Below are positions 2,933 to 29,133 of a stretch of 29,133 nt of DNA, piece after piece. Numbering within the stretch: the stretch's first letter is position 1; the number at the start of each line of letters is the position of its first letter. This DNA is from a virus. Taxonomy: Duplodnaviria > Heunggongvirae > Uroviricota > Caudoviricetes. The stretch spans positions 1 through 29,133 of IMG/VR virus record IMGVR_UViG_2648501318_000010; one strand, given 5' to 3'. Below the pieces are notes generated by a model. It was given only the letters and a program-made list of their open reading frames with translations. It had not been told where the DNA came from and made no database searches. Made by a program: the position numbers and the translations under genes.

Positions 2933-2945
2933 TAGTTAACGAGAA

Positions 2946-2971
2946 CCCCGGCAGCTGCCGGGGTTATTTTT
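2946..2971 (+). terminator. Rho-independent terminator after the lyz unit
   Basis: Perfect 18-bp palindrome CCCCGGCAGCTGCCGGGG followed by TTATTTTT. Confidence 0.6.
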
Positions 2972-2976
2972 GGTGG

Positions 2977-5707
<2,731 letters not shown>

Positions 5708-18834: not shown

Positions 18835-19866
18835 CTAATCGCCATCTTCCAGCAGGCGCACCATTGCCCCTGTTTCACTATCCAGGTTACGGATATAGTT
18901 CATAACAATATTTACGTTGGTCCAGCCACCAGCTTGCATGATCTCCGGTATTGAAACTCCGGCACGGGCCATATCTCGCGCGGCTCCGACACGGGCACTG
19001 TGTCCAGACCAGGCCTGGTACCTCTGGCCAGAGTCATCCTTAGCCCCGTAAATCAATCGGTGAGTTGCTTCAAAAATCCCTTCCAGGGCGCGAGTTGATA
19101 GCTGGCTGGTGGGTGATGGCGAGGCAACACCATTTTTTCTGACCCGGCAAAACAAGTAGTTATTCGGATCATCAGCCACACCAGAGACAGAAATCCATCG
19201 CTCGACCAGTTTAGTTACCCCCAGGCTAAGTGCCTTCTCTACACCTGCGGTGCTAACCAGCGTTTTCGTTCTGCCAATATGGATTAACATTCTCCCACCG
19301 TCAGTACGTGAGATATCTTTAACCCTGATCCTGGCAATTTCGGCTATACGTAACAGGGTGTTATAAGCAATCCCCAGAAATGCCAGATTACGTATATCCT
19401 GGCAGCGATCGCTATTTTCCATGAGTGAACGAACCTGGTCGAAATCAGTGCGTTCGAACGCTAGTGCCTGTTTTGCACGTTCACCGGCATCAACGTTTTC
19501 TTTTCGGATCCGCCGCATAACCAGTGAAACAGCATTGCTGTCACTTGGTCGCGGCAGCCCGGACCGACGATGAAGCATGTTTAGCTGGCCCAAATGTTGC
19601 TGGATAGTTTTTACTGCCAGACCGCGCGCCTGAAGATATAGAAGATAATCGCGAACATCTTCAGGTTCTGCGGGAAACCATTTCCGGTTATTCAACTTGC
19701 ACCATGCCGCCCATGACCGGCAAACGGACAGAAGCATTTTCCAGGTATGCTCAGAAAACGCCTGGCGATCCCTGAACATGTCCATCAGGTTCTTGCGAAC
19801 CTCATCACTCGTTGCATCGACCGGCAATGCAGGCAAATTTTGGTGTACGGTCAGTAAATTGGACAT
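18835..19866 (-). CDS. cre: Cre tyrosine site-specific recombinase
   Basis: 343 aa; the translation (MSNLLTVHQNLPALPVDATSDEVRKNLMDMFRDRQAFSEHTWKMLLSVCRSW...) matches Cre essentially throughout, including the catalytic region around RIAEIARI...HSARVGAARDM...GGWTNVNIVMNYIRNLD. loxP is adjacent. Confidence 0.98.
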   Translation of the reverse strand: MSNLLTVHQNLPALPVDATSDEVRKNLMDMFRDRQAFSEHTWKMLLSVCRSWAAWCKLNNRKWFPAEPEDVRDYLLYLQARGLAVKTIQQHLGQLNMLHRRSGLPRPSDSNAVSLVMRRIRKENVDAGERAKQALAFERTDFDQVRSLMENSDRCQDIRNLAFLGIAYNTLLRIAEIARIRVKDISRTDGGRMLIHIGRTKTLVSTAGVEKALSLGVTKLVERWISVSGVADDPNNYLFCRVRKNGVASPSPTSQLSTRALEGIFEATHRLIYGAKDDSGQRYQAWSGHSARVGAARDMARAGVSIPEIMQAGGWTNVNIVMNYIRNLDSETGAMVRLLEDGD

Positions 19867-20284
19867 TTGACACTCAGATAATGGTTTTAAGTAAAGTGTA
19901 CAGGATCGGCTCTGCCTTTACCTGTTTATGGTTCTCGTCATAGAAACGCCAACGACCGCGACTGCGTTCTATCTTTTCTTCACCGCGCGATAATGACAGT
20001 TGACAACTATCACGATCAAACCCTTTTGCCCGCCAGTAACCACGATTTTTCTCAAGCTCAAGATGAGTGGACACTTTAGCAGCTGAATATCCCATTTTTC
20101 ACCTCTGATTGATTGGTGGTGCTAAGTGCGCTACGCGAAATCTGGAGCACTAACACTGCCAACATTTCGCAGATTTTACGTAGCGCAACCTTGATCAAAT
20201 GATCAAGTGATCACTATTTGACCTGATAAGGTATTGAACTGTATGGATTTACAGGTAAATTGATCATGTTCAATAACCCTTAAG

Positions 20285-26243: not shown

Positions 26244-26454
26244 ATCACACCTTTAATCACTGATTGGGCTTTATCTGCTGCCCGGCATTCTCTGTTTAAG
26301 CACAACCATTTCCTGACGGCATAACACAGCAATAGCGGTCCTGGCACCAATTTGCTTACCAACCAGGTATTGCTTTACCTCGCGGCGACTCACGCCATCA
26401 AGAAGCATCTTTAACGCTTCACGGGACAATTTGTTGTATTTACGTGCCATTAAT

Positions 26455-26835
26455 CTACTCCGCGGAACCATACAATCTACGTAACGTGTCGGCGACAGAA
26501 GATACAGATATCTCTCCGGTCGCAGCCCCTACGGTAAGGTCTGCCAGTTCAGGTGAATCAAATACCTGCACCCCGTTACGGCGTAGAAATAACAGCGCAC
26601 TGTTTAGCGCGGTACGCTTATTGGCATCATTGAATATATGCCCTCTCGCTGTAGCCACCAGGTAGGTGGCGGAGACTTCGAAAAGGTCGGTGATCTCTTC
26701 GTAGGCAACTCTGGCCTGAACTCTCCCGATAATGGCCTCTGCCCTACCCGGATCTGACATTCCCGGCAAGCCGCCGTAGCGGTTTATATTCGCATCATGA
26801 AGCGCAATAAGTTCTTCCGGTGATATATGCCTCAT
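26455..26835 (-). CDS. doc: Doc toxin (death on curing; Fic-fold kinase)
   Basis: 126 aa; translation ([25 protein letters not shown]...[23 protein letters not shown]...) matches P1 Doc, including the Fic-type HxFxD(A)NKR motif. Confidence 0.95.
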
Positions 26836-27056
26836 TATCGGTTAACCAGTTCCTTGTTGGTGGAGTCCAGGGTGTCAAACAGGGATGCAAATTCAGCATC
26901 CAGCGCCGCTTTTTTGTAGGCTTCAAAAGTAGCCTTGCTGACAATTACTGCTGGCTCACGGCCTCTGCGGGTGATTTCAACCTCTTCCCCGGCTTCAACA
27001 TTGTTGAGCACTTCAGAAAGGTTGCCGCGCGCGGTACGGAAGTTAATGGATTGCAT
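26835..27056 (-). CDS. phd: Phd antitoxin (prevents host death)
   Basis: 73 aa from the second in-frame ATG ([40 protein letters not shown]...), matching P1 Phd; its stop overlaps the doc start. Confidence 0.95.
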
Positions 27057-27128
27057 AAACACCTCGTGTACTCGTTATGTGTACACAATTATAAACTTCA
27101 CAGGCATAAAGCACCAGCACTTTGCAGC

Positions 27129-27518
27129 TTAAATAACCGGACAATCATCAAATTCCCCACTTCGGGCATCATTGATGACATGAGTGATCACACCAAAAAC
27201 AGCATTACTGCCCGTGTAACCATCGTCATCTACTGGTAACGCCTCTTTCTTCCCGGTGCTTAAATCCTCCAGGTGCTGGCGCGGATACTTTCGGTATCTC
27301 TTTATGCGATATTCACCCTCCATAGCGCACACAAGCAGCGAACCATCAACTGGAGTAAGCGAAGAATCAACCACCAGCAAAGCACCCTGCAATATTCCCT
27401 CGCGGTGATGGCTGTCTGCCGCCCGCATGAAGTAGGTCGCTGATGGATGCCTGATTAGTTGCTGATCAAGAGAAATTCTGCTTTCAACATAATCCGCCGC
27501 AGGAGAAGGGAAGCCCAT
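27129..27518 (-). CDS. humD: HumD, UmuD'-like SOS mutagenesis protein
   Basis: 129 aa; strong similarity to the UmuD C-terminal domain (GFPSPAADYVE.RI.L.Q.LI.HPSATYF) without the N-terminal cleavable segment; LexA box immediately upstream. Confidence 0.9.
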   Translation of the reverse strand: MGFPSPAADYVESRISLDQQLIRHPSATYFMRAADSHHREGILQGALLVVDSSLTPVDGSLLVCAMEGEYRIKRYRKYPRQHLEDLSTGKKEALPVDDDGYTGSNAVFGVITHVINDARSGEFDDCPVI

Positions 27519-27537
27519 AGCGTTTTCACCTCAATAA

Positions 27538-27557
27538 TACTGTTCATTTATACAGTA
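27538..27557. promoter_or_regulatory. LexA box (SOS operator) in the humD divergent promoter region
   Basis: TACTGTTCATTTATACAGTA fits the CTGT-N8-ACAG consensus; 20-39 nt upstream of the humD start codon. Confidence 0.75.
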
Positions 27558-27692
27558 TACATTAAAGAGACACCTTTGGTGCAAACGCGTTATGTACATC
27601 AACCACCGCAGATGATTTTGTGCGCTTTGCTACTATTCATCACCAACGGATCAGCGTAACCTCGTTGCCAATCAGTTAATAAGGAATTAGCT

Positions 27693-28277
27693 ATGCCTGC
27701 CCGCATTCCTCTCGATCCTGTATTGCCCAAAAATTTTGACTGCACTCCTAACGAGAAACGCTCTAAAGCTCAGTTGGACGCCTGGTGGGACCATCCATAT
27801 GGGGTTACACAACCTGACGGGAAAATTGTAGTTTATTGTCTGAATGGTGGGGCGTGGGACCGTCCATCCGTGCTTGGTTTGGCAAATAACTATGATGAAG
27901 CCTGTGAACTTGCCGAAAGACAGCAGGCAAGCTGGGTAAAAACACGTTATGAACCGACATTCATGTTTTCAAAAGAACCGCCATTTATACTGGCGAGGAT
28001 GCCGCAGCGACCGGATCATCAACAAGAAATTGTTGCTGAATTTTCCTCTAGGGATGAGATGAATCTCTTCTCATTAAAGCAGGAAGAAAGGGATCGCGTC
28101 GAAGTGTCTCCAACTCTCGACCACAACCGGATGAACCTGGCCCAACTCGCCTGGTACAGCAAAGAATTAGAGATGTCTATTGCCCGACTTGAAAACGAAA
28201 AAGCCGCTATCCAAGCCCAGCATGAAGTAGTTCTGAACCGGATTAGAGAAATGCAAAACGATAACAGGGGATTTTGA
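27693..28277 (+). CDS. Hypothetical protein divergent from humD (possible P1 lxr equivalent)
   Basis: 194-aa ORF with an AGGAAT RBS-like sequence upstream; predicted coiled-coil C-terminus; no homology recognised. It shares the LexA-box intergenic region with humD. Confidence 0.5.
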   Translation: MPARIPLDPVLPKNFDCTPNEKRSKAQLDAWWDHPYGVTQPDGKIVVYCLNGGAWDRPSVLGLANNYDEACELAERQQASWVKTRYEPTFMFSKEPPFILARMPQRPDHQQEIVAEFSSRDEMNLFSLKQEERDRVEVSPTLDHNRMNLAQLAWYSKELEMSIARLENEKAAIQAQHEVVLNRIREMQNDNRGF

Positions 28278-28640
28278 ATGGCTAAAATCGAGTACCATCG
28301 CGATCGCGGTAATTACCTGGAAATATACGATCATGAATCTCTTAACGATATCAACGATGCGTTATATGAATACTGTGAAAAAATGAGCATCACAGATGCA
28401 CCTGACGCATTTGTCGAGCTACCGGTATATCTCCGCGACATCTATGCAATACGGACGCCGCCCGTATCGGTAATTCACATTGGCTATGTCCGCCTGTCCA
28501 TCGAAGAAGATGAAGATCGTTATATCGTACGCCACTATACATTGGACAGAAAAGAGCTTCCCAATGAATGGAACATGAGTAATTTCTACAACGGTGAATA
28601 TGGCTTAAAACCCGCTATGAATGGCGCGGGCATTGCGTAA
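28278..28640 (+). CDS. Hypothetical protein, translationally coupled to the upstream ORF
   Basis: 120-aa ORF whose ATG overlaps the TGA stop of the 194-aa ORF (TGAATG); no homology recognised. Confidence 0.5.
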   Translation: MAKIEYHRDRGNYLEIYDHESLNDINDALYEYCEKMSITDAPDAFVELPVYLRDIYAIRTPPVSVIHIGYVRLSIEEDEDRYIVRHYTLDRKELPNEWNMSNFYNGEYGLKPAMNGAGIA

Positions 28641-28651
28641 TAGCCTAACAA

Positions 28652-28891
28652 CTATTCTGTTTTCTGATATGCCGGATCGTTCCCTTTTGGCAACTGGAGG
28701 CTTAACTGCCGGTAGTGCCGTAGACGTTCCATGAAATAGGTGCGCAGATTCTCTGGTTGCTCGCGGGCTACCTGTTCAGCTATGACAGGTATGTTCAATC
28801 GCTCTTTGTAGGCAACCCCCCTGGCAGCCAGGTCAACGTTAACTTTATTCCTTTCTTCCTGGCTTTTGGCTGCTATGTTCCATTCGTTCAT
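28652..28891 (-). CDS. hot: Hot, homolog of the DNA polymerase III theta subunit (HolE-like)
   Basis: About 79 aa from the internal ATG at 28891; the [32 protein letters not shown] motif closely resembles E. coli HolE. The ORF track extends 21 codons upstream. Confidence 0.7.
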
Positions 28892-29133
28892 CGATAGGAA
28901 TTTAAATCCCCAAAAGACTAAAAAAGCACCACAAAACGGATATTTCTTCAACACCCCTTGTGCACCATATGAGCGGAAACGACTATTAAACAGGATGACA
29001 CTGATTGATACAGGGTATGAATGGCGGTTTTTTGCTCCGTTTCCGGTAAAATGGACGCAACTTCCCCTCTGCGGCTCTCAGCCGCACACCTGCTGTCGTG
29101 CCAGTCGCTCATGCATCAGGACCAGCTCTGCCA

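Follow-up and report, generated by a model that had tools for sequence, protein, structure and literature searches.

The lxr-upf93.6 interval of a P1-family phage-plasmid: gene identity, LexA box and a conserved acidic domain

Introduction

In a 29,133-nucleotide stretch of viral DNA (Caudoviricetes; IMG/VR record IMGVR_UViG_2648501318_000010, positions 1 to 29,133; hereafter the window), two adjacent open reading frames (ORFs) lie between humD and hot and are transcribed away from humD, out of a gap that carries a LexA box. Are these ORFs, here ORF1 and ORF2, an SOS-induced functional unit, as an earlier reading made from the letters alone (the sequence-only reading) had suggested, and do they belong to the P1 backbone or to its cargo? 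The window is a P1-family phage-plasmid, and ORF1 and ORF2 are identified here as lxr and upf93.6, both already catalogued for years in the P1 and P7 records without an assigned function. As a finding about the window this is ordinary. The new point concerns the protein encoded by lxr: its N-terminal ~90 residues are a conserved acidic domain without a Pfam family, and the large unannotated family to which this domain belongs is the sole thread worth pursuing.

The explanation that best accounts for the locus is that lxr and upf93.6 are two known, uncharacterized accessory genes, that the LexA box between them and humD is owned by humD, and that Lxr acts as a binder. Taken as a whole, we give this explanation an even chance of being right, and its parts differ in strength as set out below.

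Results

ORF1 is lxr and ORF2 is upf93.6

The stretch comprising humD, ORF1, and ORF2 is 100% identical to Escherichia coli plasmid NZ_CP122822.1. In Megablast searches against phage records its identity to P7, SJ46, and several isolates named "P1" is 97%, and to P1 itself 96%, with a gap. ORF calls bore out the two ORFs of 194 and 120 residues running away from humD. Both are real genes, given that their exact protein sequences occur on 125 (ORF1) and 208 (ORF2) public contigs and that diverged homologs (37–66% identity) retain length and conserved motifs.

The two gene identities are close to certain. ORF1 matches PHROG 6164 along its whole length (residues 1–194, E 6.2e-135; family labeled unknown function) and is 93% identical to a 190-residue homolog (P0004) whose C-terminal ending is of the P1 Lxr type. 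It occupies the slot between humD and hot, opposite in direction to humD, as lxr does in P1 and P7. The sequence-only reading had placed a gene named lxr in this position in P1, and this proved correct: the P1 reference record places there Lxr, a 190-residue protein with a "LexA regulated function" (YP_006568). The P7 record lists upf94.2 (194 residues) and upf93.6 (118 residues), each with "unknown protein function". P1 lxr and P7 upf94.2 are the same gene as ORF1, in the same humD-hot slot and with the same upstream LexA box, and the DNA of upf94.2 aligns closely with ORF1 from end to end. A three-way DNA alignment of the window, P1, and P7 shows that P1 lxr departs from the P7 and window allele across the last ~20 codons, then runs straight into hot, and that P1 is entirely without ORF2. 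The last ~20 codons in the window thus follow the P7 allele, with a recombination breakpoint inside the 3' end of lxr.

ORF2 matches PHROG 5797 (E 9.5e-77; family likewise labeled unknown function). Over residues 1–115 it is 96.5–97.4% identical to P7 upf93.6 (tblastn; 94% across the full-length alignment), and the same range holds for SJ46 and related copies over these residues. It is the same gene as P7 upf93.6 (YP_009914579; PHROG 5797) and, as there, lies directly 3' of the lxr stop. The two copies differ in length (120 residues in the window, 118 in P7) and in their last few codons, and upf93.6 is followed by IS903 in P7, whereas in the window hot lies 11 nt further on.

Scans with Pfam, NCBIfam, and PADLOC (the last holding models of defense systems only, with no hit at E ≤ 1) gave no family for either protein, sequence-profile searches of the PDB with both families returned nothing below E 0.09, and literature searches found no functional study of lxr. 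The outcome that both genes might be conserved P1 backbone genes of known function, which would have undone the earlier proposal, did not arise, as neither has a known function. A profile search with ORF2 gathered 46 clusters, all "hypothetical"; where a source is named, all are from Enterobacterales except one chimeric record labeled Bacteroides. The ORF2 protein is acidic (isoelectric point (pI) 4.7), and its structure model, with a predicted local distance difference test score (pLDDT) of 59, is too poor for fold assignment.

The LexA box follows humD

A consensus LexA box in the intergenic region, on which the idea of an SOS-linked pair had been built, is indeed present. Scored with a position weight matrix made from 21 E. 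coli LexA boxes (training scores 12.6–26.9 bits), TACTGTTCATTTATACAGTA reaches 23.3 bits, and a single further site in the 29-kb window scores at least 12 bits. Each of the six elements with humD that were examined has the box: the window, P1, P7, pLKSZ04 (27.1 bits), D6, and RCS47. D6 and RCS47 keep it beside humD even though they are without lxr; their similarity to the window takes in the start of humD, the box, and ~40 nt beyond, fading at about position 27600, and the candidate humD −35 position is retained. Conversely, no LexA box lies upstream of lxr in three humD-less P1-like elements (AnCo3, a Salmonella element (L080/L081), and an E. albertii element (L082)), the last showing merely a degenerate remnant as judged by eye. 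Nor was a box, of gamma or alpha type, found within 400–450 nt of ~60 other lxr homologs from Gamma-, Beta-, and Alphaproteobacteria.

Geometry and promoter scores agree with this distribution. Within the 174-bp gap between humD and ORF1, the ATG of humD is 19 nt from the box and that of ORF1 135 nt. Using our own sigma-70 scoring (background median 6.4, 90th percentile 9.6), the best candidate in the humD direction, TTGCAC-19-TATACT, scores 7.9 and has its −10 element inside the LexA box. The best candidate in the lxr direction scores 5.4, under the background median. An extended −10 candidate, TGcTACTAT, located ~70 nt downstream of the box, scores 3.6 and is also under the median; it sits in the lxr-proximal ~70 nt that are common to the humD-less E. 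albertii element, where similarity sets in from about position 27620. A stricter consensus scan reported no promoter on either strand of the gap. As the box co-varies with humD and not with lxr, and as geometry and promoter scores point the same way, it is probably the operator of humD and not that of lxr. On comparative grounds LexA control appears unlikely as a property of the lxr gene, and P1-type elements could still have it. The name lxr, for "LexA regulated", is an annotation-based prediction; the literature search found no experimental support for it, the comparison argues against it, and the name is best treated as a provisional annotation.

Other LexA-like boxes were noted nearby. The second site in the window, AACTGTATGGATTTACAGGT (20237–20256, 19.1 bits), lies beyond cra (19874–20095, minus strand) and cre (18835–19866, minus strand). 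One paper places a LexA site over the P1 coi promoter (PMC4713147), and AACTGTATGGATTTACAGGT probably corresponds to it. The humD-less Salmonella P1-like elements carry strong boxes at L018 5008–5027 (AnCo3, 24.9 bits) and L080 6332–6351 (23.5 bits), in each case just upstream of an 88-residue minus-strand gene; relative to lxr they lie ~1 kb (AnCo3) and 1.8 kb (L080) downstream, and the 88-residue gene may be another gene of this neighborhood under SOS control.

The two genes are adjacent but not an obligate pair

The TGAATG stop/start overlap described in the sequence-only reading is an adjacency, not an overlap. The junction reads ...GGGGATTTTGAATGGC, with the TGA stop at 28275–28277 abutting the ATG at 28278 and the two ORFs in the same frame, and a Shine–Dalgarno-like run, GGGGA, lies 6 nt upstream of the ORF2 ATG. 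In one natural variant (P0056) the stop is changed from TGA to TGG, and the product is an Lxr-Upf93.6 fusion protein. UGA readthrough as a source of such a fusion was considered and judged unlikely, as the AnCo3 pair (L018 3983–4003), also in frame, is separated by TAA and five sense codons.

Each gene is often found without the other, and the pair is thus no obligate module. ORF2 is missing beside lxr in P1, pLKSZ04, the Salmonella element L080, the E. albertii element L082, and Klebsiella IncFIB/MOBH plasmids. Homologs of ORF2 without lxr beside them occur in a range of settings. In a Serratia silvae P1-like element (L085 3382–4333) the homolog follows doc of a phd-doc module by 18 nt, and the lxr homolog of this element is ~40 kb away. 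In Yersinia (L086 2963–4348) the gene ahead of it is of the Mrr_cat restriction type, with HEPN and PLD genes nearby. Salmonella plasmids carry it after genes for proteins of 81 and 320 residues, the latter with an N-terminus that looks winged-helix-like from its sequence only, and IncN plasmids carry it after ssb, a TrfB-like gene, and a small membrane-protein gene, a set interpreted as the leading region. Given that its relatives are found after such varied, unrelated genes, upf93.6 behaves as a mobile single-gene cassette landing at the 3' end of unrelated operons, which is one useful outcome of the analysis.

The proposal of an SOS-induced two-gene functional unit is therefore not supported: the box follows humD, no credible sigma-70 promoter for lxr overlaps it, and the genes occur independently. 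Assignment to the type II toxin–antitoxin pairs finds no support either; the genes do not consistently co-occur (lxr alone in P1, pLKSZ04, L080, and L082; ORF2 alone in an IncN plasmid, Serratia, Yersinia, and Salmonella), and no known toxin or antitoxin fold or family is related to either of them. As a separate observation, the Serratia doc and Yersinia Mrr_cat settings of upf93.6 resemble defense islands.

lxr is a recurrent, dispensable family gene and ORF2 is cargo

Whether the pair is backbone or cargo, which the sequence-only reading had left undecided, has a different answer for each gene. Homologs of lxr share a slot (lpa, pdcB, then lxr) in the diverged Salmonella and E. albertii P1-like elements, and AnCo3 carries lxr at 66–70% identity; humD is absent from all three of these lxr-bearing elements. 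In D6 and RCS47 it is humD that directly adjoins hot, with lxr missing. Among 5,426 complete E. coli genomes, humD-like DNA is present in 683, lxr in 239 (171 at a coverage of at least 80%), and ORF2 in 113 (99 at that coverage). A survey of P1-like plasmids lists the segment from pmgT to humD, with hot and lxr included, as one of eight highly variable regions (PMC9603915), and lxr was scored non-essential by CRISPR interference (CRISPRi) in P1 (PMC10695390), being dispensable for lytic growth. From the slot survey, the E. coli counts, the variable-region listing, and the CRISPRi result, lxr is a recurrent, syntenic yet dispensable gene of the P1 family (semi-backbone), and ORF2, absent from P1, is variable cargo. 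In pLKSZ04 the lxr homolog (L079 2501–3075) is annotated as two coding sequences, 2501–2944 and 2941–3075, which suggests a frameshifted or pseudogenized copy.

Lxr combines a conserved acidic N-terminal domain with a long C-terminal helix

The AlphaFold2 model of Lxr, made with 35 homologs, has a pLDDT of 87, with block means of 85–97 over residues 1–120. Residues 1–35 form a conserved, mostly non-regular N-terminal arm. They are followed by three antiparallel β-strands and a long helix (residues 36–85), two further strands and a helix (98–130), a linker, and a single long helix spanning residues 149–192. Hydrophobic residues recur along this last helix at spacings of three and four (L152, L159, I163, L166, I173, V180, I184, and M187), and the coiled-coil-like C-terminus that had been noticed in the first ORF is supported by both the model and this spacing. 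The C-terminal coiled coil is seen in the ~190-residue enterobacterial homologs and is absent from those of ~130 residues.

The core of the N-terminal domain (residues 5–90) carries the motifs LDxWWDxP[YF] and CL[ND]GGAWDR, and 28 columns are invariant across 35 diverse family members. Compared with homologs other than the closest P1-type alleles, residues 1–90 are 54–78% identical and residues 91–125 are 23–69% identical, while the coiled coil is 36–63% identical among the ~190-residue forms. Residues 1–90 are still 54–70% identical in homologs of 130–160 residues, several of which are from Alpha- and Betaproteobacteria. The family is acidic in 35 of 35 sequences (median pI 4.96, net charge −4 to −12). 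So is the N-terminal domain taken separately (median pI 4.86, net negative in all 35), a figure that describes the charge of the whole domain and not of its surface.

PDB searches by sequence and by fold provided no solved structural relative for Lxr. A sequence relationship to AP2 domains was examined and rejected, as the family profile, aligned to the AtERF1 domain with hhalign, reached 0.7% probability over 15 columns.

The Lxr N-terminal domain is widespread on proteobacterial mobile elements

An exhaustive profile search for the Lxr N-terminal domain (Lxr-N) collected 479 representative proteins at E ≤ 1e-3, of which 261 reach E ≤ 1e-10, and tblastn located the domain on 898 PLSDB plasmids, 564 of which are conjugative. 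In a scan of one genome per species it was present in Klebsiella, Serratia, Kluyvera, Burkholderia, Paraburkholderia, Massilia, Bradyrhizobium, Mesorhizobium, Rhodopseudomonas, Sphingobium, and other genera. Its hosts are conjugative plasmids, phage-plasmids, and likely integrative elements of Alpha-, Beta-, and Gammaproteobacteria. Lxr-N is among the more conserved unannotated domains on proteobacterial plasmids.

Most members are stand-alone domains of ~130 residues, to which the ~190-residue forms add the coiled coil. Others add an N-terminal helical module of ~55 residues or a C-terminal extension, and homologs of 200–400 residues combine the helical module with poorly conserved C-terminal regions. 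A domain-fusion check of these longer homologs found weak Pfam matches and one PaaA2 motif, and offered no functional handle. The ~55-residue module, conserved and found at the start of many Lxr-N homologs (P0122, P0128, P0155, and related proteins), has the consensus ..TAT.L.KMRRAAK..AR.....Y..AL...AR.AGFASWH, with weak matches to the N-terminus of Pfam Glyoxalase_8, and the PaaA2 antitoxin motif is in P0133 (E 6e-8, above the Pfam cut-off).

The neighbors of Lxr-N are establishment and maintenance genes. Conjugative elements of the Rhizobiales type have traC-traD-traG, an SNase-like nuclease gene, Lxr-N, WGR, DUF4326, DUF736, ParE/RelB, and ArdC. In plasmids taken to be PromA-like, ArdC, SNase, RepA, and Fic/VbhA are followed by a 66-residue gene, Lxr-N, and a resolvase gene in an operon. 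On large Klebsiella contigs, taken to be phage-plasmids, Lxr-N faces away from a gp32/exonuclease/RecA operon and adjoins a HEPN/Toprim gene, and in Klebsiella plasmids it adjoins H-NS. With ArdC, nuclease, toxin–antitoxin, and resolvase genes beside it, Lxr-N is a reasonable candidate for pull-down experiments and anti-defense screens.

Six-frame ORF clustering of 65 loci, a procedure swamped by overlapping-frame artefacts in GC-rich genomes, returned two small recurrent neighbors of 66 and about 60 residues. The 66-residue protein (MKIEDLKGDERTLVVVALQAL...) is encoded directly upstream of Lxr-N in the PromA-like plasmids (L007 5790–5990) and 1–2.7 kb downstream of the lxr homolog in a Klebsiella IncFIB/MOBH plasmid (L015 6669–6872) and a K. 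grimontii contig (L019 7243–7446).

Discussion

In the favored explanation, lxr would be expressed from a weak promoter of its own, probably within the ~95 nt next to the gene, and would be at most weakly SOS-dependent. ORF2 is probably co-transcribed and translationally coupled with lxr without being its obligate partner; Upf93.6 would be an unrelated small acidic accessory protein, co-expressed here owing to its insertion site. The coiled coil most likely dimerizes Lxr and would make it bivalent, and the target of the N-terminal domain may be a conserved host or element-borne partner in DNA metabolism, protein or nucleoprotein, or else a defense component. As a dispensable modulator, Lxr would then come into play while the element is being established or maintained, much like PsiB or ArdA. 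PsiB and ArdA/ArdB/KlcA are small acidic establishment or anti-defense proteins of plasmids. By analogy, Lxr is likewise small, acidic, dispensable, borne on mobile elements, and highly conserved across hosts, and its relatives are likewise located among ssb, ardC, toxin–antitoxin, and nuclease genes; it differs from them in that Pfam, PADLOC, and PDB sequence and fold searches reveal no sequence or structural similarity to any of these plasmid proteins. Drawn from acidity, conservation, and context, this protein-binding mechanism is put forward tentatively and stands well short of even. It is interesting to speculate further that the whole Lxr-N family binds or modulates one conserved bacterial factor (e.g., a recombination, SOS, or replisome protein, or a defense component) and so constitutes a new establishment or anti-defense factor, with Upf93.6 as a second, independent anti-defense candidate; this wider idea is doubtful.

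Several observations weigh against the favored explanation, and they are best considered with the alternatives to which they lend themselves. Two weak plus-strand promoter candidates overlap the LexA box (TTCACC-18-TATACA at 27525–27554 and ATAATA-18-TACATT at 27534–27563, scoring 5.4 and 4.4), and in the P1 record the site carries the label "LexA binding site in the regulatory region of lxr and humD". The lxr-ORF2 pair also recurs in a second lineage, AnCo3, at 57–66% identity and in the same frame, and a functional link, not shared descent, might explain this recurrence. A single LexA-repressed lxr-upf93.6 operon, read from a bidirectional SOS-controlled region and serving a function coupled to damage or induction, would account for the promoter candidates and the P1 label, and would suit the strong box in the shared gap, the adjacent ORFs with a Shine–Dalgarno-like run before the second, and the presence of SOS or replisome proteins (humD, hot) as neighbors. 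We nevertheless regard such an operon as improbable: the box persists beside humD in elements without lxr and is lost from those without humD, the ~60 other lxr homologs are without it, the plus-strand candidates score below the background median in a gap where the consensus scan came up empty, the distances to the two start codons favor humD, and the P7 record assigns the LexA site to humD alone. As for the activity of Lxr itself, the NCBI name of its family is "DNA-binding protein", and the β-β-β-α topology of the predicted core resembles AP2/ERF and integrase-type domains, with which it shares three antiparallel strands followed by a long helix and an LGx[FA]x[TN]xx[DE]A-like motif at the helix start. 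The most probable Foldseek match is the GCC-box-binding domain of AtERF1 (PDB entry 1gcc; probability 0.57, E 0.67, target-normalized template modeling score 0.55), and hhalign aligns the LGxxxxx[DE]A segment with the start of the AP2 helix. Gene order fits too, with Lxr-N placed directly before the resolvase gene in the operon of PromA-like plasmids, and after traG and then the SNase-like nuclease gene in the Rhizobiales-type elements.

Lxr might on these grounds be a dimeric, sequence- or structure-specific DNA-binding protein with an AP2/integrase-like N-terminal domain, acting as a regulator or as an accessory in resolution, partition, or transfer. Against this, Pfam AP2 is not reported for Lxr at E ≤ 1, and the net negative charge of the N-terminal domain, taken over the whole domain, gives no indication of a basic DNA-contacting surface. 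This possibility is itself unlikely, and nearly as likely as protein binding. Far less credible is a toxin–antitoxin, abortive-infection, or defense module beside phd-doc. The small size and tight coupling of the two genes, and their place in a variable region (PMC9603915) next to an addiction module, would fit such a role, as would the ORF2 relatives that occur after doc or close to Mrr, HEPN, and PLD genes, and the fusion of one distant Lxr-N homolog to the PaaA2 antitoxin motif. Each gene is, however, common without the other, neither protein matches PADLOC models or a toxin or antitoxin family in Pfam, and no sign of essentiality emerged when lxr was knocked down by CRISPRi in P1 (PMC10695390); P1 has no ORF2, so that the pair itself falls outside that test.

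Features of the interval

The features of the interval and its flanks are collected in Table I. hot converges on ORF2 and marks the right-hand edge.

Table I. Features between doc and hot in the window (positions in window coordinates)
Feature	Position	Strand	Basis
doc	26455-26835	-	
phd	26835-27062	-	
humD, UmuD'-like S24 peptidase-fold protein	27129-27518	-	Pfam Peptidase_S24, E 5.7e-9; P1 and P7 annotate humD at the equivalent position
LexA box TACTGTTCATTTATACAGTA	27538-27557	.	Matrix score 23.3 bits; annotated LexA site in P1 and P7
Candidate humD promoter: -35 TTGCAC (27584-27579), 19-nt spacer, -10 TATACT (27559-27554)	27554-27584	-	Prediction
Weak candidate extended -10 TGcTACTAT for lxr	27628-27636	+	Speculative
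ORF1 = lxr (P7-type allele, upf94.2), 194 residues	27693-28277	+	PHROG 6164, P1/P7 annotation, DNA alignment, 104 homolog clusters
Lxr N-terminal domain coding region (residues 1-125; core 5-90)	27693-28067	+	Conservation and AlphaFold2
C-terminal long helix/coiled coil coding region (residues 149-192)	28137-28268	+	AlphaFold2, hydrophobic spacing
TGA-ATG junction, 0-nt spacer, same frame	28275-28280	+	
ORF2 = upf93.6 (P7), 120 residues	28278-28640	+	PHROG 5797, P7 annotation
hot, DNA polymerase III theta subunit homolog	28652-28954	-	Pfam DNA_pol3_theta, E 4.7e-32; P1 hot annotation

Rfam reported no RNA family within 26400–29133. By-eye inspection upstream of lxr revealed neither the "−22" motif of P1 late promoters (GT[GT]ACTT, from LPpac and LPhot) nor a C1-operator-like sequence. 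The 3' end of lxr and ORF2 (window 28150–28600) have a G+C content of 0.42–0.43, slightly below the 0.47–0.50 of the flanking genes, which fits ORF2 as an acquired cassette.

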